From a virus: a stretch of DNA of 64,000 bases. The notes beneath the pieces were generated by a model. It saw only the letters and a program-made list of their open reading frames with translations, made no database searches and had not been told where the DNA came from. The position numbers and the translations under genes are program-made. Position 1 is the first letter of the stretch. Each line of letters starts with the position of its first letter. The stretch is taken from positions 96,001 to 160,000 of IMG/VR virus record IMGVR_UViG_3300032315_001401; one strand, given 5' to 3'. Positions 6,301 to 36,283 of this stretch are shown here, piece after piece.

Positions 6301-9300
6301 TAAGATCCTATTTTGTGAGATGGCATTGCCACTCTAAAGGTTATTACTTTGTTACTTTGATTATCATATCCAATTACAGTTTCTCCAATTGTAAATGCCC
6401 CAGAAGAACCATAGTTTTCTAATGATTCGCTATTTGCAATTTCAATAAGTTTTGGTATAAAATCTACAGATCCGTTTCCATCCAAAAATTGATAATATCT
6501 AGTGTATGGTTTCAGACTAGTAATTGAAAATTCAGTATTTCTAGATCTCATGTATTCTTCTGCACGAGACTCTACTAGTCTTGTAGAACTTGTGCTTCTG
6601 GCAGAAGAACTACTAGTTTCTGTTACAGTTTGAGAAAATTCGGTTGAAAGTTCAGTTCTACTTGCTTCAGCTCCATTATCAACTGTGACCGTTCTATCTC
6701 CTAAAACAGTATTATCTCTTTCAACCAGAACAAAATCAGTAACAGATATAGTTTTATTTGGCAATTGTATAGTTCTTACCCAATTATCTCTGTCTGGTGA
6801 TAATTTTATAGATCCTTTGTAAGAAATTACATGGAATGGATTAACATTTTCTACCTGAGTTGCCAAAGGTTGTTCAATCCATTTTTCAGAATCATACTTA
6901 AGAGTAACAGTATTTCCTGTTTTTTGTACATTGGAATCTATCAATGTATAATTAGTTGAAAGATCAACTTCTTCATTTGTAGTATTAAGTGCAGGGGCAA
7001 GATAATTTTTAAGACTATTTCTAGAGATAATAGGTCTCATTTCTTGCAATTGAGAATCTATCTCAAGAAGGGAAAGATTTAAATTTATTCTCCCATAATC
7101 TTTAAAATCATCCACAAAAAATCCAGTTTTAAATCTACTGAATCCTTGCGAATCTTGCACTTGTAAAGTTTGAGTGCTCAATTCTAAGAGTGATAATGAA
7201 GTTATCCTTTCGAGATTCTTAACTCTATTTTCAATGAGACCAATGTCTCTCATTGTGTATCTTCTATTATCAACCAGAGATAATGTTGCATTATTTGGAC
7301 TATACAAGTAAGGTGGCAAATTGATTGTTGCAATCTCCATCACATCATCAATTTTAATAGGAGATTTTGGATTTGATGATGATGTACCTTGAATATAGAC
7401 AAATTCTCCACTCTTATCAAGATAAATTTTATCTATCCTTCCAATATAGTAATCATACCCAATAATTGCACTTTCATCTGGAGTTAAATTTAACTTAATA
7501 GAAGAACTGAAGTTTCTATTTGAAAAATCAAATGGAGAAGAATTAGATGCAGTAAATATAGATACTCTAGGTCTAAAATCAAGAGTATCTGATGCTCTCA
7601 AATTTTTAGCACCAATTAATGGGACATCATTTAAAAATTGTTCTTTATCGTAACTTAATACAGTAAATACATCCCCATTATCAGTAGATGGAACGCTATA
7701 ATAATCAAAAACTACTAAAAGTCTTCTAGAAGGCTCAGTCTCCCCTTCGTTTCTTACAATTCTAGAATAATCGTAATATTGTTCTTTCTGACCCTTATCT
7801 AATTTAAATCTATTTGTTATATCATTATAACTTCCTAAAGTAGTAAAATCTATTTCTCCAATTATATTGGATTCTTCAAATGTAACGCTTTCATTATTTA
7901 AAAATCTATTTGAATTTAAAAAGACAACACCAACACTATTTGTAGATCTTGTTACGACTCTAGCTATACAACCACTTTCAGAACCTATTATATTTTCACC
8001 AATAATTGCATTTCCACCAATATTTAAAACACTGCTAAATGATAAAGTGTCCAATGAAGGATTTGATGTATTTAAGGATTCATAAACTGCTAAAACTTTT
8101 GAAACATCTGGATAATTAAGAGAAACCTCTTGATCTTGTACTCTCAAACCATAATATGGATTATATTCGAGACCATCATTAATGGAAGTACTAATTCCAG
8201 TTCCAGATTCTAAATATTTTGAATAAGTTACATTTATTGTTTGACTTCTATTATATTGCTTTTCTTTACTTTGCACTCCATTTTTAATGAAAGTTGCATT
8301 AATTGAGGATGTTGTTTTTCCTGAAGTAAGATTTGATAAAGTAATTTGATTATTGGATAATGAGAATTGATCTGGTGTTAATGATTGTGTAGTTCCGTCA
8401 GTGTAATGTACAGAATAACGCTCTTCATCAAATGCTTGGAACAAAGCAGTTGTTAATCCCGTTGGAAGTGAAAAATCGGAAACAGATAATACAATTGGAC
8501 TACTCGATGATTTGGCAGAAGTTGATTGGGCACTAAAAGTCAGAACCGAATCATTTAAATCTATTGATGATAAATTAGAATTGGGAACTTCTGCATATAA
8601 AAATCCCTTTTCAATATTTTTAATTGAAGGAGATCCAATACTAAATGATACATTTGTGGAAACTCCAACAGCACCATTGCAGACTCCAGTAACAGATGGA
8701 ATAGCAACAACTGTCATAGAGTCGCCAGTTGAACTGACGCTACTTACTCTATTGAAGTTTTCTGAAGATCCAGTTGATGTTTGATATCTAATTATACTTC
8801 CAGGTTTAATTGAATTGAAAAATTTTCCTGGCGAAGTTACAACTCCACCTGCACTAATATTAACTGTATCGGCAGCATTAAATCCGATGGGTAGTTCTTT
8901 AGTTAAAACAGAATCCCCCATAAACGCAGTAGTAAAACCAGATACTGCAGTAGATTGATAGACTTGTTTAATATCACTACTGCCATATACTGCAATGTTA
9001 GCAATTAATCTTGGATATAATTCCAGACCATTAATAATTATTTGCTCACCAGTTATAAAAGATCCCGAAGTCTGCCTTAAATTAACTATAGTTGTACCAT
9101 CTCCAGCAGAAACTGCAAATCCACTTGCACCACTACTTTTTCCTTTAATAAATGAAGTAGATGGTAATTGAGAATTAGATAATCCCTGATTTAAAGTTAA
9201 TGTTGTATATGTTTGAATATCATAAAGATATAAGTCCCAATTTGTGGACGATGATGAGTAAGCAGCATCCGTCAGTCTAAAATTATAAACTCTAGCGTCT

Positions 9301-10601
9301 CCAATTTTTGTTATAGAACTTGGATTTCCTGATGTGCTTCTTCTGATCCCATGCAATTCTAATGATTCATTTTGTTTTGGAGATCCTGTTATATTATTAA
9401 TTCTCAGTAAATTTCCCATCTCAAATGGGATGCTTACATTTCCGACATTTTGAGTTTCTCTAGGTTTTGAAACATCTAAAATAGTAGTAGAAATTTTTTC
9501 AATATCATATCCCCTAACATATGCTTTGCCAGGTGACAATTTAATACACATTAAATCGTCAGATGGGGCATTACCACTATCGGTTTTTTGATCTTTAAAA
9601 TATAAACCATTATTTCCAAGTCTATCGTTCAAAGAATCATGTAAAGAAATTTTAAAAGGAGTTATTGAATAATTTCCAGATTCATCAAAAGTTCTTTGAG
9701 CCAAATAATCTTTGATTAAAGAATATTCGGTGTTTGTATTTAATTTTTTAACCTGGCCAGCATCTATTCTAAGAAGTTCAATAAAATCTACATCAGTATC
9801 AACACTATCAATTGGTTTTTTGGTTAAAGATAATCCTATTTTAAATCTATCAGCACCTGGCGCAGCATAATTAGTAAATCCTTTTGCATTATCATAAAGA
9901 GAATCATCCTCTTTTGCTGTTACAATTTCTTCAGATACTTTAAGACCCACTCTGTAGGAAGGTATATTTGTATAATAGTCTAAAATAATGGTTTGCTTAG
10001 AAACTTTTGTAAATGTACCCCTAACAAAGTAAATTCCAGTATCAATAGAAACTGCAGATCCAATGGATGTTGCTTCAGTGGAAATCAAAGATGCAAAAGG
10101 ATTTCCAGATACGATAGTTGTATTTCCATAAACTACATTTTCATCTGACGATAAAGATTCACCATCTTGAAAGGGTGTAATTATAAAATTTTCTCCAGAA
10201 TCAATATACTTTACATATAAAGTGATATATTTTATATTATTAATAGAATCTGGAATCTCAATTTTTTGAACAACTCCAGTTACACCGGAAATTTGTCCTG
10301 TAATTTTTTTACCCAAAAATTGATTAATATATAATGAAATATTTACACCAAAATTAGTTGCATTTAACTTAACTGCATTGAATTGTGGATCATAAGTTAA
10401 ATTTCCGGGAATTACAACCGAACCTTCTTTAAATATATGACTACCAAATGATTCAATCTGATTTTGTAAAATTGATTGAATATTATTTAATTCTCTTGCT
10501 TGTACAGGTTTTCCTGGATTAAAAAGAACTTTATAAAAATTCTTTTCGGCGTCAAAATCGTCAAAATAAGGACTTACATTTAAATTTGTTTTTTGTGCCA
10601 T
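3306..10601 (-). CDS. Large virion structural protein, DUF4815 (VrlC-like), 2431 aa
   Basis: N-terminus MAQKTNLNVSPYFDDFDAEKNFYKVLFNPGKPVQARELNNIQSILQNQ plus NYAAPGADRFKI and RTFDESGNY motifs. This gene conventionally follows gp8 in cyanomyophages. Confidence 0.85.
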   Translation of the reverse strand: MAQKTNLNVSPYFDDFDAEKNFYKVLFNPGKPVQARELNNIQSILQNQIESFGSHIFKEGSVVIPGNLTYDPQFNAVKLNATNFGVNISLYINQFLGKKITGQISGVTGVVQKIEIPDSINNIKYITLYVKYIDSGENFIITPFQDGESLSSDENVVYGNTTIVSGNPFASLISTEATSIGSAVSIDTGIYFVRGTFTKVSKQTIILDYYTNIPSYRVGLKVSEEIVTAKEDDSLYDNAKGFTNYAAPGADRFKIGLSLTKKPIDSVDTDVDFIELLRIDAGQVKKLNTNTEYSLIKDYLAQRTFDESGNYSITPFKISLHDSLNDRLGNNGLYFKDQKTDSGNAPSDDLMCIKLSPGKAYVRGYDIEKISTTILDVSKPRETQNVGNVSIPFEMGNLLRINNITGSPKQNESLELHGIRRSTSGNPSSITKIGDARVYNFRLTDAAYSSSSTNWDLYLYDIQTYTTLTLNQGLSNSQLPSTSFIKGKSSGASGFAVSAGDGTTIVNLRQTSGSFITGEQIIINGLELYPRLIANIAVYGSSDIKQVYQSTAVSGFTTAFMGDSVLTKELPIGFNAADTVNISAGGVVTSPGKFFNSIKPGSIIRYQTSTGSSENFNRVSSVSSTGDSMTVVAIPSVTGVCNGAVGVSTNVSFSIGSPSIKNIEKGFLYAEVPNSNLSSIDLNDSVLTFSAQSTSAKSSSSPIVLSVSDFSLPTGLTTALFQAFDEERYSVHYTDGTTQSLTPDQFSLSNNQITLSNLTSGKTTSSINATFIKNGVQSKEKQYNRSQTINVTYSKYLESGTGISTSINDGLEYNPYYGLRVQDQEVSLNYPDVSKVLAVYESLNTSNPSLDTLSFSSVLNIGGNAIIGENIIGSESGCIARVVTRSTNSVGVVFLNSNRFLNNESVTFEESNIIGEIDFTTLGSYNDITNRFKLDKGQKEQYYDYSRIVRNEGETEPSRRLLVVFDYYSVPSTDNGDVFTVLSYDKEQFLNDVPLIGAKNLRASDTLDFRPRVSIFTASNSSPFDFSNRNFSSSIKLNLTPDESAIIGYDYYIGRIDKIYLDKSGEFVYIQGTSSSNPKSPIKIDDVMEIATINLPPYLYSPNNATLSLVDNRRYTMRDIGLIENRVKNLERITSLSLLELSTQTLQVQDSQGFSRFKTGFFVDDFKDYGRINLNLSLLEIDSQLQEMRPIISRNSLKNYLAPALNTTNEEVDLSTNYTLIDSNVQKTGNTVTLKYDSEKWIEQPLATQVENVNPFHVISYKGSIKLSPDRDNWVRTIQLPNKTISVTDFVLVERDNTVLGDRTVTVDNGAEASRTELSTEFSQTVTETSSSSARSTSSTRLVESRAEEYMRSRNTEFSITSLKPYTRYYQFLDGNGSVDFIPKLIEIANSESLENYGSSGAFTIGETVIGYDNQSNKVITFRVAMPSHKIGSYNAPTTKFTTNPYFRSESIPDAYSASSKILNVDTYSISEEAQGLYSGYLVKGAKLVGQTSGAIAYVKDLRLISDNYGDLIGSFFIRDPNTSPPPNVRINTGTKTFKVSSSSTNDVAVSGSTTVSAAETNYISDGTLELYETTITDTTTVTNTRLTTTNITRVTTNFEQTQFPQQDRGGGKDPLAQTFTVDQDGGFLTEVDLYFYKKDSGNNPLTVEIRTVALGTPTTVVVGNSVTLRPDQIQTSDDASIATKVKFDYPIYLSPGLEYALVLLAPESTEYEVFIGEMGKKTIQSKNLPDSEAVLYTQQFAMGSLFKSQNGSVWTADQYQDMKFTLYRANFVTDTPSTAYFYNPTLNESNGYVKNLQNNPLTVFPRKLKIGITTVTNSNMIGILTTGRKISESTKTYNYGYIVGTGCSVSSVGVTTAGSNYVSDTNVSTYNIIGNGSGLVLNITASGGGITTASIVTSGNGYAIGDVVGIVTSSVSSNSGRDARITITGNNNGIDTLYLNNVQGDSFTSDGTANLVYFDSSNNSVSLATTYIRSSTPVGSIYNGNYVKVNHFNHGMYAANNKVLISGVSPNTGPTTLSQSITASSTSISVASTSNFATFESKSVNGTNPGYAIIENEIIKYESVGSNSLETVTRGQFFTIPIPHSTNIPVYKYEFNGISLARINTTHDISDTGLDIDNYYIEIDRTSNGVNRSADNTPAGYPQLSFSSELTSGGSKVFASENIQYDTIIPFYDAATPTSATSLSAKIRSVSGTSIGGNEISFQDLGYEEIQLNSLNTLPSSRIVASKVNEDTFLTALPRNKSFTTAITLLSSNKYVSPQIFLDTSFTDFHSNRINSPISNYQQDGRVNSILDDPHSAIYVSNTVTLTQPATSLKVILSAYRHFSADFRVLYSLIRPDSSEIEQSFELFPGYDNLTIDNNNDGYPDVIDPANNSGLPDTFVPASSRNQFLEYEFSANNLGQFSGFTIKIAMSSTNQAYPPRFKDLRTIAIR

Positions 10602-12207: not shown

Positions 12208-15200
12208 TTACAGGTTCTTTTTGAGAGACCCATTGTTTCTTAATCCATAACCTCTTCTTTGAATTATTGGATAAGTTGATAATCCTGTATTATATGAGAG
12301 TGAAGTAATTCCTACACTTGATGTGTATCCACTCACCCCTATTGAAATTGGATTAATAGATCTAGTAAATCCTGATAATCTTCCCCAAGATAATCTACCT
12401 ACAGGATATTTAAGTGTGCCAGTAGTTGCAATGCCAACAATGGATGTGTTGGATGCAATATTGCAAGTTATGATACCTAATGTAGAATTAATTGCGTGAA
12501 TTTGATAAATGTTATTCGAGAAAGATGTGCTAATGGAAATAATATCAGTATTGCTCGTATTAATGGATGTTACTCCTTGTCCAACAGTAGTTTCAGAAAT
12601 ATAAACGGGATATCCAACCTGTAAATCTGGGAACAAGAATGGATCTCTATCTAAAGTAAATTTAAGTGCTAAAGGAGATCCAATTCCAGTTGTGGTTGCA
12701 ATTCCCACAATGGAAACATCATATCCCTCTACATCGATTATATTAGAAATATTCTCGTATATTGGATCTGGTGATGGAATTAACACCTGTGGAATTATAC
12801 TTTGACTATATCCAAATCCAGGATTTGTGATTGATACTGTTGATAACGAACCATCTACAATACTTATATTTGCTGTTGCCCTAATTCCAACTCCAATTGA
12901 TGGTGGTGATGAAATGCTTGCAGTTACTGATGATCCAATGTATCCACTACCGGGATTATTAATTATTAATGAAGAAATTGTTCCGGATGTAGAAACAACA
13001 GCAGTTACATCAGCAGGTACTAAATCAGATACTTTAGATATTATAGTTGCACTAAAATTAATTGGAGACTCATTTTCATAATTGAATATTGATGAATCAT
13101 CAACAAAGATTTGATTATCTGAATTACTAAAGTTCCTAATAATATTTGCAGTTGGATAAACTTGAGATTCTAAAGAATCTCTAGTCTTATAAACGTTTTC
13201 TCCATTAAGTATTAAATCTGTTTTTTGTTTAGTCCAATAGAGAGGTTTGTTATTAGATTCATCAATTCCCTGACCAGTATATAGATTTGTTTCAATTTTG
13301 TCAGAAGCAGAAACATCATAAATGATTCTCGCATCTTGAGTGATTGTATTTTGAATATTTGCGTTATTACTAAAGATTTGTACAGTATCTCCAATTTTGA
13401 CAGTTTCTGTTACATTAATTTGAATAGTATCCTGATTTCTTGTTCCTCTGTAGAAAAATACTGATATGTTATCTTCAGGGTCTGGTGCTACGGAGAAAGT
13501 AAAGGATGTTCCTCCGCTGAACTGATAAGAACTTCCAGGTTCTTGTAAAACTCCATTAATAAAGATAATAAGCACAGAATCCAAATCTATCAATTGTGAA
13601 TCTGGATCATTTTCATCAAGTTCAAAACTTAAAATTTCTGAATTGTAATAAAGAGGAAATCTTGTTCTTATTCCATCTTGATAATTTTTTATGGAATCTA
13701 TATAATCCAACTCACCAAACTGCCAAGCTGCAAAGGAATCTGTAAATACATCAAGAACAGTTAATTCAAATTCAGATATTGGTGAAGAAAGACCGGAAGC
13801 AGTTACTAAACCAACTGGCTTAAACACGTCACCAATTTTAAATGAATATCCATTTCTCACAATCTTAAATGATTTTACTTCAAATAATGTAGATCCAATT
13901 CCTGTTGCAGTAGAACTTGCACCAACTTCTATATTCAATAAAAGTCCAACCCCAGTATCTGTTGTATTTCCTATTCCAAGACGAGAGACCCCGATTACTG
14001 GCAAGTTTTCATATGATGGTGATGATACATTGACAGTTGGGTTGGTATATCCTGTTCCAGGATTAATAACATTAAATGATAATTTTCCTCCAGCGCCAAC
14101 ATTTGCTGTTATAACAGCACCTGTCCCTATATGACCTGTTTCAGTAATTGCAACGGAAACTGGAGAACGATATCCGGATCCAAGAATATCCATTGTACCA
14201 AGTCCAACGGATACAATAGTTCCGCCAGCACCAACAATGGCAGTTACAGAAGCGCCAACAAGAGGTGCTATACCCAAACCTCCGGTGGAACCGAAAGATA
14301 CAATTATACCGCCACGGGGTAATTGATTTTGGTTAATGTCATATTCTGATTTGAATAATGTGTTATTCGAGGATGTTATTCCGGTAAAAGTAATACTTGT
14401 TGCGCCTGCATTTTCCGATATCAAATAATTATTTGATGAATTATTAAGTGTTGTAGGAGACTGGAAAATATTATTGATAAATACAATTCCATTTCCTCCC
14501 GAAGTTCCTAGTCCTACTGTGTTTATTCCTTGAGAAGTTAAAATAAAAGTTTGTCCAATTCCTGTAAACTGGTCAGAAATATCATCATATATTTGATTGG
14601 ATGTATAATCTTGACGTAAAAACACTCTTCCGTTAAAAGATGCTCTTTCTCTTGGCAAATTAAATTCATTTGGTCCAAGTAAATCTAAAGAATTTCCTCT
14701 AGGCGGTTCAGTAAAGAAAATTTTATTTTTAGAAATATTATATGATCCTCTGTAAATTCTACCAATACTGGTATCCGTATGTACGCCTGCTATAGATCCT
14801 AAAAATCCTCTAGTCACCCCTACAAGAGAAATATTTCCATTAAAAGTAATAGGACCTAAATTTGTAGTGCCTAACCCAACATTGTTTATTTTCATGTATT
14901 CATTATCAATTTTTAATATATCCGTTGGGGTAATTGAACTTATTCCACTTAAAGCAAATATAGTAGATGCTGTTCCTATTTGTCCTCCATTTCCAGATAA
15001 TGTATGTGTTATGTAAGAATAAGAAATAGGACTTTGTACAATATCATTAATCGTAATGATAGATTTCTCATTCTTTTTATACATTTCTAACTGATGAGCA
15101 TTTCCCAAACCAAGGGAAGTAAATGTCACAGCAATTCCTAGATTTGCATATTCTTTTCTTGTAGAAATCCTGAAAGAATCATTAGTATCCTTAATAGCAT

Positions 15201-29101: not shown

Positions 29102-29322
29102 TTCTATAAAACCTTTTTTCGTTTTTATATAGGGAAAAAAATTTTTATAATGAGAGTAATAATTAGCTCGCTTCCGTAACACTTTGTAGGTTACAGGGAC
29201 CCATCGATTTTATATACGGGGGGGTTATCTTATAACGCGCCGCCGGCGGGGGCGGGCACAATACCCGGACCCCTGCCAAACACGAACGAATGGCACTGCC
29301 CCTCACGAACAACGCAAGGGGG

Positions 29323-29613
29323 TCAGGCACCCCGACGCTCCAGAGCAGCAGCGCGGCGATCGTTGCGGTACTGATCACGGGCACGGATCATCACTGCCTC
29401 AAGGTCAGCAACCATCACGCTGCCCAACCCTGTGACGCGGGTGATGGTCAGACCCTTACCCGAACCAACGGCGTGGGACGAACCACCGGCAGGCAGATCA
29501 GAATCACGAACGGAACCAATAGCAGCACCCCGCCCGTGTTGAGAGTTACGGCTGAGGGTCTCGCCCTTACGGGGACCGCGACGGGGCAGGCGGGTGACGG
29601 TGTAAACAGTCAT
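29323..29613 (-). CDS. GC-rich early hypothetical protein (96 aa)
   Basis: MTVYTVTRLPRRGPRKGETLSRNSQHGRG..., preceded by a TGCTACAAT extended -10 at 29640-29648. Confidence 0.6.
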   Translation of the reverse strand: MTVYTVTRLPRRGPRKGETLSRNSQHGRGAAIGSVRDSDLPAGGSSHAVGSGKGLTITRVTGLGSVMVADLEAVMIRARDQYRNDRRAAALERRGA

Positions 29614-29662
29614 CGGTTCAGGGGGTGTCGGTTGAGAGTATTGTAGCAGGTCGGCGGAGGGG

Positions 29663-29875
29663 TCACCCCCATTGAGTGCTGCGCCACCCGCTGATGGGGC
29701 AGGGGGCAACGTCACCAGCAAGGGTCTCTGAATACTGGGCGGCGAGGGCAGCGGCAGGCACCCCCCAATGAATGTAGGCGGAGGGGCGGGAACCGTTCTT
29801 CAGTTGGTCAGCACGGGAGATCCACTTGACCTGACGGGTCGCGAGGTCAGAGCAGGCAGCAAGGGGGAAACGCAT
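29663..29875 (-). CDS. GC-rich early hypothetical protein
   Basis: ORF track. Own upstream promoter (TAGAAT at 29903-29908, TTGACC at 29927-29932). Confidence 0.55.
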   Translation of the reverse strand: MRFPLAACSDLATRQVKWISRADQLKNGSRPSAYIHWGVPAAALAAQYSETLAGDVAPCPISGWRSTQWG

Positions 29876-29928
29876 CGGGTGTCGGTTGCGGTTGACTTTG
29901 AAATTCTACAGGGTCAGGTGGGCAGGGG

Positions 29929-30117
29929 TCAATACCCCAACCAGACCAAAAACTCACCGGCATCTACAGGTCCGAATTTGGCGGTCGTCCCGTAGTCGGT
30001 GCGGAAGTCATCCCAGAGGGAATGGTCCTTTGCTGCCTGGCAGGCGGTGCTCCAACGAATGCACCCGTTATCATCGGCGCAGTTCAGGAGCAGGGCAGGG
30101 AAGGTGGCGAAGGTCAT
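29929..30117 (-). CDS. GC-rich early hypothetical protein
   Basis: ORF track. Own TGCTACAAT promoter at 30144-30152. Confidence 0.6.
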   Translation of the reverse strand: MTFATFPALLLNCADDNGCIRWSTACQAAKDHSLWDDFRTDYGTTAKFGPVDAGEFLVWLGY

Positions 30118-30165
30118 CGGTCGGTGTCGGTTGACTTGAGAGTATTGTAGCAGGTCGGGAGGGGG

Positions 30166-30357
30166 TCAACCCTCCCACTCATCCTCTGGGGTCAGCACAC
30201 AGACCAACGATTCCAGATGGCAGCAGTAGCTGTAGTCCTTCCCATGATGGCGGACCTTCCACACTGGGGCACCAGGCAGGTTGGCAGTGTGGGGACTCAT
30301 TTCAATTCGCTCCACACCGTAGGGGGCAAGCATGACCATCGCTTCGGAGATGAGCAT
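30166..30357 (-). CDS. GC-rich early hypothetical protein
   Basis: ORF track. Preceded by the shared leader/promoter GGTTGACTTGAGAGTATTGTAGCAGG. Confidence 0.55.
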   Translation of the reverse strand: MLISEAMVMLAPYGVERIEMSPHTANLPGAPVWKVRHHGKDYSYCCHLESLVCVLTPEDEWEG

Positions 30358-30404
30358 CGGAGGGGGGGTTGGTTGACTTGAGAGTATTGTAGCAGGTCAG
30401 GGGG

Positions 30405-30590
30405 TCACTGCCCGTCTGTGTAGTCTCCGATGATGACCCCGTTGCAGCGGACCTGGGCGTACCCGTACTCCTCAGACAGGGAGAGGCAGAGGTCCCATGC
30501 GCGGTCCTCATCGGTGGTCGTGTTCTCCCAGGGAGCGGAAGGGCAGATAACGTCGTAGCGGGTCATGAGGTCGTTTGCTTTGGTTCCCAT
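30405..30590 (-). CDS. GC-rich early hypothetical protein
   Basis: ORF track. MTRYDVICPSAPWENTT...YGYAQVRCNGVIIGDY. Confidence 0.55.
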   Translation of the reverse strand: MGTKANDLMTRYDVICPSAPWENTTTDEDRAWDLCLSLSEEYGYAQVRCNGVIIGDYTDGQ

Positions 30591-30635
30591 AGTGTAAACC
30601 CCCCACCCGCGTCAGCAGGCAGGGGGTGTGCGGTT

Positions 30636-30776
30636 TCAGAATTGGACCTCCTGCAGGGTCGGGGCGTCAGCAGGCGCAGCATCCCCAGATTCAGCGGTCA
30701 GGGTCTCCAGAATCTGCAGCAGTTCGGCGCCATTAGCAGCGCGATTCAGCAGGGCAACGGCAAGGTCAGCGGTCAT
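30636..30776 (-). CDS. Early hypothetical protein (46 aa)
   Basis: MTADLAVALLNRAANGAELLQILETLTAE... Confidence 0.5.
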   Translation of the reverse strand: MTADLAVALLNRAANGAELLQILETLTAESGDAAPADAPTLQEVQF

Positions 30777-30842
30777 GGTTGAAATAGGGTTGAGGTTTGC
30801 TGGGCGTCTTTCAGGGCGCACCCGCTCCCGTATTGTATCAGG

Positions 30843-31004
30843 TCAGCGGGCGAACTGTGCCAGACTGCTGGGAGCGACGTGAGCAGGCGACCCGCAGGAC
30901 CGGTAGAAGTCTACCATGCTCTGTGCTTCCTCCAGGGTGGGGAACCACTGGGAGCGCCACTCGCAAGCGTTGTAGGGGGTCTGGTAGCGGACTTCGATTC
31001 GCAT
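30843..31004 (-). CDS. Conserved cyanophage early protein (53 aa)
   Basis: MRIEVRYQTPYNACEWRSQWFPTLEEAQSMVDFYRSCGSP..., with its own TGCTAGAAT promoter at 31028-31036. Confidence 0.6.
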   Translation of the reverse strand: MRIEVRYQTPYNACEWRSQWFPTLEEAQSMVDFYRSCGSPAHVAPSSLAQFAR

Positions 31005-31317
31005 GGGGTTGGTTGCGTTGTGAGAGAATTCTAGCAGATCAGGGGCAGGGGTCAACCTGCCCCGTAGGGGGTCAGCGGATCACCTTGACCACTTCGCCCT
31101 TGTGGCGAATCACGATGGAGGTGAAGGAGGGGTGGAACCCCTTGGCGCTGCGAACGGCACCTGCCAGGGAGGTGCAGTGGGTCATGCAGGATGCTGCATC
31201 GGGGGTGGAAGCAGCAACAACGGTGAAGTCGCGGGTCTTGGTGGTTGCCATGGGGTGGGGTTGTGAACTGAGAGAATTCTAGCAGGTCAGGGGGTCGGGT
31301 GTGACCCCCCAGCGGGT

Positions 31318-31578
31318 TTAGAAGTCGAACACGTCGCCGTTGATTTCAGCGCGGTTGACTTTAGGGTCGTCCCACTTCACACCGTCCGGGGTCTCTTTGG
31401 TGCCAAATTGATAGAATGCCTCCAGCAGTTCTTCATAGCAGCAGACATCATTTTCCTGAATGAAGTTATGAATGCTCTCATCATTCTCAATCCAGAGCAC
31501 AACATTCCAGGTCTCATAATTGGTCCAACCGTTGTAGGTTTGGTCGGTGAGGCAGGTCTGGTAGGTAGTGGCAGGCAT
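31318..31578 (-). CDS. Conserved phage protein with YNGWxNxETW motif
   Basis: TYNGWTNYETWNVVLWIENDE is a widespread phage family signature. Promoter cassette upstream. Confidence 0.7.
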   Translation of the reverse strand: MPATTYQTCLTDQTYNGWTNYETWNVVLWIENDESIHNFIQENDVCCYEELLEAFYQFGTKETPDGVKWDDPKVNRAEINGDVFDF

Positions 31579-31651
31579 TGGTTTGTCTGTGGTTGACTTG
31601 TTAATTGTAAGGGGTCAGGTGGGGGGTTGGTGCCCCCCTTGTGCCAGTTCG

Positions 31652-31837
31652 TCAGGCGGCACACAGGGCAGAGTCCATGCAGACCTCGCGGGTCTCCACC
31701 AGCACGTAGTCTACTGCAATCTGCTGCTCCAGCTCATGAGCGTAGGCGTCAGCAGCAGAGCGGCAATCGAACAGGCGAAGGGTGCTAAAGTCCTGCCCTT
31801 CATAGTCGGCACCAGCGATGACAGCGTAGACTTGCAT
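31652..31837 (-). CDS. Early hypothetical protein
   Basis: ORF track. Flanked on both sides by promoter cassettes. Confidence 0.6.
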   Translation of the reverse strand: MQVYAVIAGADYEGQDFSTLRLFDCRSAADAYAHELEQQIAVDYVLVETREVCMDSALCAA

Positions 31838-31913
31838 GGGTTGCTCCGTTTGGTTGACTTGTTAATTGTAAAGGGTCAGGGTGGGGTCTGTGGGGTGGTA
31901 GTGTGCCACCTTA

Positions 31914-32810
31914 TCAACTGGCACACTGGAAGCGCCCGCTGTTGAAATTATGGTATGAAAAGACCTCACGGTTCACCAGTTTGAACATACCAAACTCATT
32001 GGTCATGACATAACCTTCAGCATCAATCCTCTCCTGCCCGATGTAAGCGGCAGGACCATCATTGCGGCACAGATAGAGACAATCATCTTTGATCGACTTT
32101 ACCAGTGCCCACAATCCAAGCAGGTTAGGATCGCAGTCGAATTCAGTATTCACAACAGGACGATTCTCACGAATGCAGGCATTCAGTTGTTGCTTGATCT
32201 TTGCTGCCTCTTTATCAGTCACAAACTTCACCGCAAGTGCCATCACCCGTGCAAACTTGCAGACCTCTTCAACATCAGCGAACGATTCTTGCCCGTGCTG
32301 GATGTATGCTTGCGGTTTCACAAATTTGCAGTAGTGTGTATCAGTGATGATAAAGTTCATCGGGTGAGCAACAGCATCACGCAAATCATTCTCTGCCACG
32401 TAGACAGTGTGAGGGGCAACAATAATCTCCTGATAGACTACTTCAGGAAACTTGTAAGTGATCGTGTTGGGAGTATACTCATCGCTATCACCAAACCCAA
32501 TAAAATCACCTTGAATGATACCATTTGTGCGAGGAAGATAATCAAAGCAAGCGTGAAGAATACGCGCAACTTCACCCTGATAGAATGCATCAATCTCTTC
32601 ATGATTGTGAGCGATACGAATCTTTTTCTTGTTAAAGACCGCTTTGGTTCCTACAAAGAACTCACCGCAGGCAGGGTCAATACCCCAGACAATTGCAGGG
32701 GCACCATCAATCTTAACGCTCAAGTTACCAGGATTGACGAACCAATCCAGAACAGAAAGGTCACCCGTGAGGATAGAATCTTCGGGGTGCTCAAGGTGGG
32801 TGTTTTTCAT
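31914..32810 (-). CDS. DUF6267-like protein with a nucleotidyltransferase/RNA-ligase-type KxDG motif
   Basis: MKNTHLEHPED...SVKIDGAPAIVWG...FFVGTKAVFNK, IIQGDFI, EGYV and FKLVNREVFS. Confidence 0.7.
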   Translation of the reverse strand: MKNTHLEHPEDSILTGDLSVLDWFVNPGNLSVKIDGAPAIVWGIDPACGEFFVGTKAVFNKKKIRIAHNHEEIDAFYQGEVARILHACFDYLPRTNGIIQGDFIGFGDSDEYTPNTITYKFPEVVYQEIIVAPHTVYVAENDLRDAVAHPMNFIITDTHYCKFVKPQAYIQHGQESFADVEEVCKFARVMALAVKFVTDKEAAKIKQQLNACIRENRPVVNTEFDCDPNLLGLWALVKSIKDDCLYLCRNDGPAAYIGQERIDAEGYVMTNEFGMFKLVNREVFSYHNFNSGRFQCAS

Positions 32811-32863
32811 GAGACTATTGTAAGGGGTCCTGTGGGGGTCTGGGGTGGGTCTTGTGCCAGTTG

Positions 32864-33073
32864 TCAGGGTGTCACAGACTCTTTAAGTTGCTCCGCAGGA
32901 TAGTTAAAAAGTTTATTAATCCTTTCAACTTCACTCTCAAAAAACTCCATTGCTTCCAAAGGTTCAATGTCATACTTGTCAGCAAGTCTATCAAGTTTCC
33001 ACCGCAGATTATTCATCTCCCAAAGTTGGGTGAGAATGAACAAACGAACTTCGTGCTTTTGTGTGTTTTTCAT
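32864..33073 (-). CDS. Hypothetical protein
   Basis: ORF track; plausible helical protein. Confidence 0.5.
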   Translation of the reverse strand: MKNTQKHEVRLFILTQLWEMNNLRWKLDRLADKYDIEPLEAMEFFESEVERINKLFNYPAEQLKESVTP

Positions 33074-33130
33074 TTCAAATGAGGTGCAATTTGTGTTTGA
33101 AGTTAGGGAGGCATTGTGCCCCCCGATTCT

Positions 33131-33478
33131 TTATGTGAACATGAAACCATTCACAAACTCACTCTCATTGTAGACAGGAGAAGTTCCTGCCTGCCCAATG
33201 AACTTGTGAACGAACCAATCGAAGTTCCGTTGCAACACACATTCGCCCTTGATTCCGTGCTCTTTGAGAATCGCATTCAAACGCGATTTGGTGGTTGCAG
33301 ACTGATAACCACCATCAAAGATTTGCACGAAGTTGTCACCAATGGTAGCAATGTGATTGCCGAACAGAAACACTTTGGACTCTTGAGTTTCAGCGTCAAA
33401 GGTGACTTCAGTGTTGCCAGACTTCCAGTTCAGGGAGTCACGAATGGCAGCATTCATCTGGGTTTCGATCTTGCGCAT
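33131..33478 (-). CDS. Conserved cyanophage early protein
   Basis: MRKIETQMNAAI...SATTKSRLNAIL...QRNFDWFV. Promoter cassette upstream. Confidence 0.7.
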   Translation of the reverse strand: MRKIETQMNAAIRDSLNWKSGNTEVTFDAETQESKVFLFGNHIATIGDNFVQIFDGGYQSATTKSRLNAILKEHGIKGECVLQRNFDWFVHKFIGQAGTSPVYNESEFVNGFMFT

Positions 33479-33875
33479 TTGGGGGTTTCCCTCTCAACAA
33501 AGGTAGTATGGACCAGATTGGGGGGAATCGCAACCCCCCTTGTGCCACTTTCCCAGGTGTCACAATCCCAATAGGTATTGAGCATACTCTACAGCATCTT
33601 CACGCTTTTTGAATCTTGCCGGAAATCCACTGTAACGAAGTTGACGATACTTAAACTTTCGTTCAGAATTTACAATAACATCGTTAGAATAGATCCAAAG
33701 TTCCCAACGACCTTGAGAATCATCTTTGTTGATTTTTTTATTTTTATTGGTGATGTAGGGTCTTTGGATGTGCCCTTTTTTGGTGGTTTGGTTGACGATC
33801 ATGAGATGCAGTGTCTCAAGGACGAATGTAATTTATCAGGCTCGGGGGGAATCGCAACCCCCCTTGTGCCAGTTC

Positions 33876-34061
33876 CTAGACTGTCACATCCTCCAGCAGT
33901 TCGGGATAGTATTCACGAACCTCTGTAATCAGTTCGTCTTCATTGTATTTGTCGTAATTTTCCATCAGATAATCATAACAAAGACCCACCAAAGTTTCCA
34001 TGTCCATGCCATCAATAATTTGCTGGACCAGGTGATTTTGAAGTTCAGAACGGTTCATCAA
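33876..34061 (-). CDS. Small acidic hypothetical protein
   Basis: MMNRSELQNHLVQQIIDGMDMETLV...YYPELLED. Confidence 0.6.
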   Translation of the reverse strand: MMNRSELQNHLVQQIIDGMDMETLVGLCYDYLMENYDKYNEDELITEVREYYPELLEDVTV

Positions 34062-34651
34062 TTGTCTCCAAAGTTGTTAGAAAGAAAGTCTTCAAGTTCA
34101 GTGAGTTTGCTCTCACTCATGTTCCAAATATATTCACTGATAACAGTATCCAAAAGGTCAGCATCTTCACGACACTTCTCTTTCAAAAACCACTCAAGTT
34201 CGGTTCGGTTAGTCATCTAAACAGTGGCGGTAGGTTTGATTCAGGCGAATGAGAATGTCATCCCAGAACTCTTTGTCCTCATCATCATTGTATTGGTTGT
34301 TATCTTCAACCAAACGAATCAGATTGTTGAGGTCATCAGGGGTGAGATAGTTCATTCAGCACCCTCCAACATTTCGAGCAGAGTATCATAAAGCACGGCA
34401 ACATCTGTGCCCACAATCTCATTCAGTTCTGCTTCAGATTCATCATCGGCAAACGATTCAGTGTGAAACTCAATGAACCTACGAAGAGCATCAATCTGCT
34501 CAAAGGTGAGGGTAGTTTGAGTCATTTACGAAGAGGAGAATTGTAGTAACGACGAAAAGCAGTGAGAAGAATAATGCCCGTTGAAACAACACCAACCAAA
34601 CCAAGGAAGGTGACAGCATCTCCAGTGAAAGTGTAAGTGTCAGGATTCATT

Positions 34652-34777
34652 TCAGTAATCATAATTTGCGTTCAGGTATTCATTGACATCGAACTTCTCA
34701 TCACGAAGTTCGGGAATGTCAAGGTCGAAGATCTCCCCGGGAGCATCTTGAATCTCACTCCAGAGTTCATCAAACAT
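34652..34777 (-). CDS. Very acidic micro-protein (41 aa, not in ORF track)
   Basis: MFDELWSEIQDAPGEIFDLDIPELRDEKFDVNEYLNANYDY, first gene after the cassette at 34839. Confidence 0.6.
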   Translation of the reverse strand: MFDELWSEIQDAPGEIFDLDIPELRDEKFDVNEYLNANYDY

Positions 34778-34856
34778 GGTCTGTCTCTCAGGGACGAATG
34801 TAATTTATCAGGGTTTGGTCAGGGTCGCAAGGGGTCTTGTGCCACCTTGTCAACTG

Positions 34857-35045
34857 TCACATCATATCACCCTCAGCGATCAAACCCATGATCTCCCTTG
34901 CCGTAGCAGCAAAGTTAATGTGATCTTCCAAACCTTCTTTGGAGTATACTTCAAAGAGATCAGTTTCCCGATAAGTATCAAGAATCAACTGGCAAGCATC
35001 ATAAAGTGCTGCGACGTTATGTTGACGGGTTGGGAAGGAAATCAT
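34857..35045 (-). CDS. Hypothetical protein
   Basis: ORF track; first gene after the cassette at 35105. Confidence 0.55.
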   Translation of the reverse strand: MISFPTRQHNVAALYDACQLILDTYRETDLFEVYSKEGLEDHINFAATAREIMGLIAEGDMM

Positions 35046-35127
35046 CGAATTTCTCAGCGACGAATGTAAATTATCAGGAATTTACCCCCAGCGCAAGGGG
35101 GTTTGTGCCACTTCGAGAACTGTCACA

Positions 35128-35286: not shown

Positions 35287-35427
35287 TTATGCATAATGCC
35301 TGTATGCTAGGTCCTGATAATCATGTGTGTCTCGTGCATAATCATCATCTAGATCTAGTGTATAATGCTCATCTAGATCCGCGTAATCGTTCGTGTATGT
35401 GTAGTCGAAATCGTAATCGTCGTACAT
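35287..35427 (-). CDS. Asp/Tyr-rich micro-protein (46 aa)
   Basis: MYDDYDFDYTYTNDYADLDEHYTLDLDDDYARDTHDYQDLAYRHYA. Upstream promoter TTGCAA-18-TATAAT with extended TG (35459-35488). Confidence 0.55.
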   Translation of the reverse strand: MYDDYDFDYTYTNDYADLDEHYTLDLDDDYARDTHDYQDLAYRHYA

Positions 35428-35429
35428 AG

Positions 35430-35644
35430 CTCGTCGAGATCGTGTGAGTGACTTGTGTATTATAGCATAGAGCTCGACGAGATTGCAATAGGTATGCACA
35501 TATCTCGACGAGATTCGTATGGTAGTATATATGAATCTAGATGCTTCTAGATGGGTCTCGACTAGATTATATGAGAATCTCGTAACATAATGCCTCGTCG
35601 AGATTCTATCATACTTTCATAAGAATGTCAAGTCTCGTCTAGAT
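35430..35644. repeat. Six copies of the quasi-palindrome CTCGWCKAGAT
   Basis: Copies at 35430, 35473, 35504, 35557, 35594 and 35634 in largely non-coding DNA. Confidence 0.9.
35603..35631 (-). promoter_or_regulatory. sigma70-type promoter TTGACA-17-TAGAAT with extended TG
   Basis: tgtcaa at 35626-35631 and attcta at 35603-35608 on the plus strand. Confidence 0.7.
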
Positions 35645-35680
35645 TTTATGAGGGTCTGTGAATTTTTATGGGGGCGGGGG

Positions 35681-35709
35681 TTGACAAACTGCGAGTCTTA
35701 TGCTACGCT
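35681..35709 (+). promoter_or_regulatory. Plus-strand sigma70-type promoter TTGACA-17-TACGCT with extended TG, divergent from the 35603-35631 promoter
   Basis: TTGACA at 35681-35686, TG at 35701-35702, TACGCT at 35704-35709. No plus-strand gene follows. Confidence 0.6.
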
Positions 35710-35735
35710 CGCTTAGCTCACAAGACCTGGAGGGG

Positions 35736-35895
35736 TTTATAAGCATTTAAGACACAAAAACCCGGACACATTTATAAGCACTTATAAGCATTTAAGACAA
35801 AGTTTTCCACACAAATACAATACTTTTCCACAGGTTTTCCACAACTAAACAAAATACACTTATATATTTTTTAATACATTTTTTTAATTAATTTA
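35736..35895 (+). other. Candidate replication origin: TTATAAGCA/TTTAAGACA repeats, three TTTTCCACA boxes and an AT-rich tract
   Basis: TTATAAGCA at 35737, 35772 and 35782. TTTTCCACA at 35803, 35824 and 35835. A near-pure A/T run follows to about 35895. Confidence 0.55.
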
Positions 35896-36081
35896 ACCTT
35901 TTTTATCCTTTCTTTCTTGTGCTGCTGTCTGTGCTAAATGAATATTTGTATGAAGACGTTGTAGATTTGCATAACGATTATGCTGACGTGTGATAACAGA
36001 GTTTGCTTTAATTCTTGCAGCATTAACATTTGACTGCTGTGATGTAGGAATCTGTTCCATGAATTGAAAGAACGTCTTCAT
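35893..36081 (-). CDS. Hypothetical protein (MKTFxQFxE type)
   Basis: Likely start 36081. A CTAAATA late-type promoter lies at 36105-36111. Confidence 0.5.
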   Translation of the reverse strand: MKTFFQFMEQIPTSQQSNVNAARIKANSVITRQHNRYANLQRLHTNIHLAQTAAQERKDKKG

Positions 36082-36283
36082 TGCTATACTTAAGACTGTA
36101 ATGATATTTAGAATCTGGTTGATTATCATTCCAATGTCTTACCACTCCTGCAATAATAAAAGCATTAGTAATCAAATAAGATGCAAAGATGAATGTTCGA
36201 ATCAATGCTATCTTATCTGACTCCTTATTACATTTGGATGCTTTCTCTCCTAATGCTTTTGCCCACAGTCTCCACAACTTCAT
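36023..36283 (-). CDS. Conserved cyanophage membrane protein
   Basis: MKLWRLWAKALGEKA...DKIALIRTFIFASYLITNAFIIAGVVRHWN, one transmembrane segment. Confidence 0.65.
   Translation of the reverse strand: MKLWRLWAKALGEKASKCNKESDKIALIRTFIFASYLITNAFIIAGVVRHWNDNQPDSKYHYSLKYSNEDVLSIHGTDSYITAVKC

Follow-up and report, generated by a model that had tools for sequence, protein, structure and literature searches.

A gene-free cassette with host-type DnaA boxes as the best candidate replication start of a T4-like cyanophage

Described origins and the setting of the locus

The minimal oriF and oriG origins of bacteriophage T4 span about 100 bp and combine a promoter with an A+T-rich unwinding element, where the transcript persists as an R-loop and primes synthesis, and T4 oriE contains iterons without a known role (PMC3016281). 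In cyanobacteria, the 9-mer TTTTCCACA has been named a "species-specific" DnaA box (PMC4674748). T5-like phages, which are virulent, carry eight DnaA boxes in pairs spaced by 3 bp, within a large untranslated region rich in repeats and palindromes (bioRxiv 10.1101/866236). The locus described here resembles T4 oriF (uvsY) and oriG in that it is a compact stretch, gene-free or at a gene edge, with a host-polymerase -10-type promoter and an A+T-rich block downstream, in a phage with a T4-type replisome. It also resembles the iteron origins (P1 oriR, RK2 oriV, pSC101 and lambda ori) and T4 oriE, since DnaA boxes and an AT-rich block adjoin direct repeats with a period of about one helical turn.

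T4-like cyanophages are major agents of mortality for the main photosynthetic bacteria of the ocean and of lakes, and we know of none with a mapped replication origin; full-text literature searches turned up no publication on this subject or on DnaA boxes in the group. The short and recognizable cassette described here provides a concrete site at which to look for one. As comparison with related genomes shows, the gene-free stretch at 35670-35896 is one copy of a single-copy cassette common to many T4-like cyanophages (Kyanoviridae), and it is the best candidate, though not a proven one, for the start of replication in this virus.

The genome is an IMG/VR record of 188,017 bp, judged 84% complete, of which bases 96001-160000 make up the window, the whole stretch of 64,000 nt that was analysed; positions below are those of the window unless stated otherwise. 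Its closest isolate is the freshwater Synechococcus phage S-SRM01 (Kyanoviridae), with 85% identity across the baseplate block. The minus strand carries almost all genes of the window, and the baseplate genes gp6 and gp25 are located at 24-26.5 kb. The cassette lies about 9 kb away from gp25, and oriF of T4 is found in the gp25 neighbourhood as well. The cassette itself forms the right portion of a gap of about 430 nt separating minus-strand genes, limited by the stop codon of the upstream gene at 35893 and the next ATG at 35427. Its position marks the upstream end of an early-type array of small genes, which could aid the annotation of these genomes. A tRNA scan gave no result.

Layout of the cassette

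On the plus strand, the cassette runs from a G-rich block through a promoter, a leader, fast-changing repeats and a docking slot to a conserved AT element, and direct reading of the sequence recovered every feature listed in the preliminary description at the positions given there. The G-rich block (35670-35680), likewise read in the sequence, abuts the -35 hexamer on its upstream side and precedes it in nearly all related cassettes. The promoter (35681-35709) is of the sigma-70 extended -10 type: TTGACA at 35681-35686, a 17-nt spacer ending in TGc, and TACGCT at 35704-35709, with transcription predicted to start near 35715-35716. A simple promoter scan did not list it because the -10 hexamer matches the consensus at only three of six positions; the argument that it is a real promoter comes from conservation among relatives. 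In more than 25 related sequences, the -35 (TTGACW), a spacing of 17-18 nt, the TGn and the first, second and sixth positions of the -10 (TAnnnT) are fixed, and the middle positions of the -10 vary freely (TACGCT, TATAAT, TAGAAT, TACAAT, TAAACT and others). This is the pattern of a promoter under purifying selection. The conserved promoter is not of the MotA type and differs from the promoters of T4 oriF and oriG in having full sigma-70 -35 and -10 elements and, by its sequence, no dependence on MotA.

The promoter is directed opposite to all flanking genes, and the term "antisense" first applied to it stands only in a narrower sense. Because two strong minus-strand promoters (35631-35603 and 35488-35459) occupy the left part of the gap, the plus-strand promoter is strictly divergent; it would become antisense only if transcription passed 35893. 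At that point the stop codon of a minus-strand ORF of 78 aa (35893-36129), 97% identical in the related contig L091, falls inside the AT element.

The leader (35710-35736, plus strand) includes TCACAAG at 35718-35724 and was delimited by alignment with relatives. Relatives from freshwater and from the sea retain it, S-SCSM2R among them, and S-BM3 and S-SRM01 have diverged versions. From freshwater to marine relatives, the promoter and the first ~25 transcribed nt are conserved, beyond what transcription alone would need, and no plausible ORF follows the promoter on the plus strand, in agreement with the original report that no gene does. Both observations would suit an early non-coding RNA gene, with the leader as its working part (for example, by seed pairing with host or phage mRNAs) and the repeats as filler or protein-binding sites. 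We consider such a gene rather unlikely: an Rfam scan at the gathering score gave no match anywhere in the window, the predicted transcript folds no better than shuffled sequence (z = -0.29), a terminator scan found no intrinsic terminator, and the body of the RNA would be hypervariable in both length and sequence. The conserved leader nevertheless counts against an origin as well, as it suggests that the RNA sequence itself matters.

Tandem 9-mers about 9-10 nt apart follow the leader (35737-35799, plus strand), with three copies of TTATAAGCA (starting at 35737, 35772 and 35782) and two of TTTAAGACA (starting at 35746 and 35791). Their identification as a Pho box, an HLR1 element or a MotA box was rejected on reading, the consensus being unfit in each case; a further ground against a MotA box is that MotA, as far as we are aware, is absent from cyanophages. 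Related cassettes contain from two to about nine tandem units, which differ strongly in sequence. Here the locus departs from the iteron origins: its repeat units are not conserved among close relatives, unlike initiator-specific iterons, and no Rep- or O-type initiator gene is adjacent, the flanking ORFs having no match to a Rep-like family. The two flanking proteins, of 46 and 78 aa, gave no family match. The repeats also set the locus apart from T4 oriF and oriG, since in cyanophage cassettes 90-290 nt of them separate the AT block from the promoter.

Three exact cyanobacterial-type DnaA boxes occupy 35803-35843 on the plus strand, all aimed at the AT element. Copies of TTTTCCACA start at 35803, 35824 and 35835 (start-to-start distances of 21 and 11 nt, with gaps of 12 and 2 nt), and the proposal that this 9-mer is the characteristic cyanobacterial box agrees with the published one (PMC4674748). 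The 188-kb genome contains eight exact boxes over both strands, three of which fall within this 41-nt span. By comparison, 200 first-order Markov genomes contained a mean of 5.3 boxes, and three within 41 nt occurred in none of the 200; the clustering is non-random, beyond chance. When sites with two mismatches or fewer from the general box consensus were counted, ten on the same strand fell in 125 nt, which ranks in the top 0.08% of windows. A second stretch that abounds in near-box words, at genome position 164.1 kb, was set aside as plain T-rich coding DNA.

The region borders a mosaic island, and the number and sequence of its repeats drift fast, so that a functionless product of neutral repeat expansion in a hypervariable intergenic region might be suspected. 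We give this explanation next to no weight: the simulations never yield the triplet, exact boxes are kept while the spacers between them change, and the same architecture is found over several genera and habitats.

The layout of the boxes is host-like. A scan of prokaryote genomes for tandem box pairs returned many cyanobacteria among its matches, with pairs 2-3 nt apart in box clusters beside dnaA, between dnaA and dnaN, or upstream of dnaN (Nostoc, Oscillatoriales and others). One cyanobacterial contig (L250) has the identical 12-nt/2-nt triplet layout followed by AT-rich DNA; a locus between dnaA and dnaN (L202) has a box, 12-13 nt and then a tandem pair with a 3-nt gap. Of these box-pair loci, L250 and also L254 are not adjacent to dnaN. 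The orientation rule was checked on the cyanobacterial oriC loci L206 and L260, where the boxes are aimed at AT-rich DNA. In the phage, boxes 2 and 3 are 2 nt apart with the AT tract on their 3' side, which conforms to the tandem-box arrangement of the bacterial basal unwinding system, BUS (boxes at most 3 bp apart and aimed at the unwinding region). The likeness to cyanobacterial oriC thus comprises an identical 9-mer and tandem boxes in the same orientation, 2-3 nt apart and aimed at AT-rich DNA (PMC4674748, PMC8287927).

In other respects the phage locus differs from cyanobacterial oriC: it has three boxes only, no adjacent run of DnaA-trios and no dnaA or dnaN nearby, and its boxes lie inside a predicted transcription unit of a lytic phage. 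Where at least three consecutive DnaA-trios near the proximal box would be expected (PMC8287927), a single CTA was found after a 1-nt spacer, and the next trio run begins only 20 nt downstream of the boxes. At the oriC loci L206 and L260, the true unwinding module is a box pair with CTA-type trios immediately after it. Having a single trio only, the phage therefore copies the high-affinity pair and not the full host-type unwinding system, which is incomplete.

As the T5-like phages illustrate (bioRxiv 10.1101/866236), box pairs are not by themselves proof of an origin in a virulent phage. The injection-stop region of T5-like phages shares with the present locus box pairs 2-3 nt apart and a conserved, untranslated, repeat-rich setting, and it has been proposed that the boxes there tether phage DNA to membrane-bound DnaA (bioRxiv 10.1101/866236). 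A similar tether in the cyanophage is very improbable. The T5 model is itself unproven; it requires a fixed genome end, and the T5 boxes indeed lie in a terminal repeat at such an end, within inverted repeats, but T4-type genomes are circularly permuted (PMC3016281). The boxes described here are found mid-genome, downstream of a promoter and together with an AT element.

The AT-rich element (35844-35896) contains a sequence-conserved core at about 35861-35890, and the tract that begins at 35844 is 88% A+T across its first 60 nt. Ranked by duplex stability in 50-bp windows, it falls in the lowest 0.04% and is one of the ten weakest regions of the 188-kb genome; it lies 135-190 nt downstream of the promoter, as an unwinding element of the T4 oriF/oriG kind would. 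The correspondence between this promoter-plus-AT layout and the minimal T4 origins, already drawn in the preliminary description, is borne out by the published account (PMC3016281). An alignment of related cassettes (alignment A2) revealed an invariant AT core about 30 nt long. Its motif occurs once in the genome and was matched three times in 473 kb of related loci, each time inside a box-bearing cassette. The AT block is thus conserved in sequence in cyanophages, whereas the T4 element is replaceable by heterologous DNA. Of the DNA on the two sides of the boxes, that on the 3' side is less stable in 18 of 24 promoter-bearing cassettes, which fits boxes aimed at the AT element.

Distribution, exchange at the docking slot and possible function

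Relatives were fetched by the flanking protein at 36023-36283, independently of the boxes; 67 loci were obtained and the ten closest (in the range L127-L140) were examined. The whole control region is kept in these ten, with the promoter, the G-rich block and the leader present in all. Three exact boxes were found in L129/L130 and in L128 (the same contig as L091), at start-to-start distances of 11 and 20-21 nt and with inter-box spacers that differ. Six others (L127, L132, L135 and L137-L139) are without boxes and have an inverted repeat of the ATTCTCAAT / ATTGAGAAT type at the same place, and L140, also without boxes, has tandem repeats only. In alignment A2, one and the same slot holds the box triplet in the window, L128 and L129, and the inverted repeat in L511 and S-SRM01, where, as in L127, the repeat stands in place of the boxes. 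Boxes and inverted repeat are equidistant from the T-rich element. As read from its sequence, the inverted repeat is a terminator in neither direction; an A-run, not a U-run, comes after it. The insertion of DnaA boxes or an inverted repeat is a further difference from T4 oriF and oriG, with which the cassette has no sequence homology.

The equal distance of boxes and inverted repeat before the T-rich element bears on the possibility of a non-coding RNA gene. Box-bound DnaA can block a transcribing polymerase in an orientation-dependent manner, and the 3' end of such an RNA could be set by the U-rich AT element in combination with either the inverted repeat or a DnaA roadblock at the boxes, which would also shield the upstream genes from antisense transcription. 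The A-run in place of a U-run speaks against this, however, and an RNA gene would leave unexplained both the conservation of the AT core as DNA and the repeated recruitment of sites for the host initiator.

The preliminary description had made its case depend in part on conservation in related phages, and the boxes are indeed kept, in L128, L129/L130, L091, L114 and some 20 contigs more. A triplet spaced as box, 10-14 nt, box, 2-3 nt, box was found in 107 IMG/VR stretches, and in at least 24 distinct contigs the promoter, leader, repeats, box triplet and AT-rich DNA follow one another as they do here. Nearly all of the latter share gp6, gp25, Kyano_Gp96 or neighbouring genes with this genome and are therefore T4-like cyanophages. 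Among isolates, the cassette with boxes is present in S-BM3 (marine); DSL-LC03 (from a lake) has the inverted repeat, the AT motif, boxes and a second box cluster. S-SRM01 and S-SCSM2R have the cassette without boxes, and the whole 240 kb of S-SRM01 are free of box clusters. Given the cassettes of these two isolates, DnaA is therefore not essential for cassette function.

A scan with the promoter and leader pattern, blind to the boxes, returned matches that were mostly due to chance, and the resulting estimate of box frequency is rough: among the matches listed, boxes were present in 2 of 13 credible cassettes with enough downstream sequence, and the AT motif was present in 8 of 15 credible cassettes. 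A BLAST search of the 171-nt core against phage isolates gave mostly low-complexity noise, and one with the related locus L323 matched two isolates only. On comparison of these sequences, the boxes are an optional add-on of the cassette.

Optional boxes that are missing in close relatives are what would be expected of an accessory trait for host manipulation. The boxes could be a DnaA decoy or sensor, titrating host DnaA with the growing number of phage genomes (and so, like datA, stalling host initiation) or tuning the divergent early promoters; the sites are perfect, of the high-affinity type, clustered and conserved, and DnaA-trios are absent. The cassette also adjoins an early promoter block under heavy operator control, and six to eight boxes lie on both sides of the promoter in L323 and DSL-LC03. 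The position of a decoy should be free, yet the boxes keep returning to a single slot, with the repeats on one side and the AT core, into which they mostly point, on the other. Their replacement by an inverted repeat at exactly this slot speaks for a task tied to position that another DNA-binding protein also performs, and at 95-160 nt from the start sites of either promoter the boxes are far for classic repression. A decoy or sensor is thus improbable in our judgement, although not negligibly so.

Our tentative preference, held with somewhat less than even confidence, is that the cassette is an early origin activated by transcription, as T4 oriF and oriG are, and assisted interchangeably by DnaA or by a protein that binds the inverted repeat. 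The promoter, used by host RNA polymerase, would fire rightward through the leader, the repeats and the docking slot to the AT element, and the transcript would invade this element and prime leading-strand synthesis. Host DnaA on the triplet would help to open the AT element or would stall the polymerase at its edge; in relatives with the inverted repeat in the slot, another protein, probably phage-encoded, would act instead. The transcript, DnaA binding, unwinding and priming are all predictions, and the "hybrid origin" originally put forward, in which host DnaA and a transcript would act together, is likewise something that we infer.

Several observations count against an origin, namely that the boxes are optional, that no DnaA-trio run is present, and that the transcribed stretch (57% purine on average) lacks a stable fold. 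Whole-genome GC skew had been named as a check on the origin; the cumulative skew is monotonic, falling steadily over the whole contig with no turn at the locus. This result is weak evidence against an origin because the genes are nearly all on one strand and because T4-type phages replicate mostly via recombination. A search for a helicase loader of the T4 gp59 type found none, and the control genomes likewise gave nothing, making the search uninformative.

It is possible, if doubtful, that T4-like cyanophages as a group possess a dedicated transcription-activated origin cassette with an exchangeable initiator-docking slot, filled by host-type DnaA boxes or by an inverted repeat for a phage factor. 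Were this true, the lineages with boxes would recruit the host chromosomal initiator to a T4-type replisome, and the need for host DnaA would vary between close relatives that have promoter and AT core in common; the natural swap of boxes and inverted repeat supplies ready-made controls. If host DnaA is truly used, phage replication would be coupled to the replication state of the host, which is unexpected for a phage with a full replisome of its own.

Flanking operators, further box clusters and the gene island

The left part of the gap is an operator-like block (35430-35641), in which about seven palindromic sites of the CTCGWCGAG type lie over the two minus-strand promoters. In this 188-kb genome, the strict CTCGWCGAG motif occurs only in this interval, and it is kept in relatives and in S-SRM01; the palindromes are probably an operator set for some regulator. 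At the S-SRM01 locus (L126), CTCGWCGAG(AT) sites are found in three clusters, at 7072-7223, 9666-9745 and 12409-12498 of that locus. The first gene behind the minus-strand promoters (35287-35427, minus strand) encodes an acidic protein of 46 aa, rich in Asp and Tyr, which is conserved in every related cassette. It is very acidic and could possibly be a DNA mimic. The operator word is found even within its coding sequence in some relatives, where it encodes D-L-D-E.

Other arrangements of boxes were observed in cyanophage contigs near gp6/gp25. One family (L030, L042, L323, L049 and about 30 more) has four forward boxes and one reverse, and a second (L027, L061, L072 and about ten more) has a box pair directly after the AT motif; in L323, eight boxes flank the same promoter. 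A distinct group of high-GC viruses (L055, L318, L321, L363, L369, L383 and L392; about 42-43 kb, 55-58% G+C) carries five to seven perfect boxes, with pairs 3 nt apart, near one contig end.

To the left of the cassette, G+C content rises to as much as 63% at 29.2-35.7 kb, against about 36% genome-wide. This island is an array of tiny minus-strand genes with a repeated promoter block before each. The idea that it might be a mobile element with its own origin was dropped, since its genes at 31.3-33.5 kb (Kyano_Gp96, DUF6267 and DUF7249) belong to ordinary cyanophage (Kyanoviridae) families; the idea is also undercut by the cassette being kept in phages without the island. Within it, the 2.3 kb at 29200-31500 (58-64% G+C) are packed with minus-strand ORFs of 46-96 aa, each preceded by a near-identical promoter block (on the minus strand, TGCTACAAT and then AAGTCAACC), and look like a recently imported or fast-evolving array of early-gene cassettes. 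Between the small genes at 31619-35127 lie five to six copies of an element of 36-45 nt, made up of a G6/C6 hairpin, then TTGTGCCAC, and later GTCACA. Finally, the DUF6267 / phrog_455 protein of 298 aa (31914-32810, minus strand) has a K-I-D-G motif near its N-terminus that is reminiscent of motif I of the nucleotidyl-transferases (ligases).
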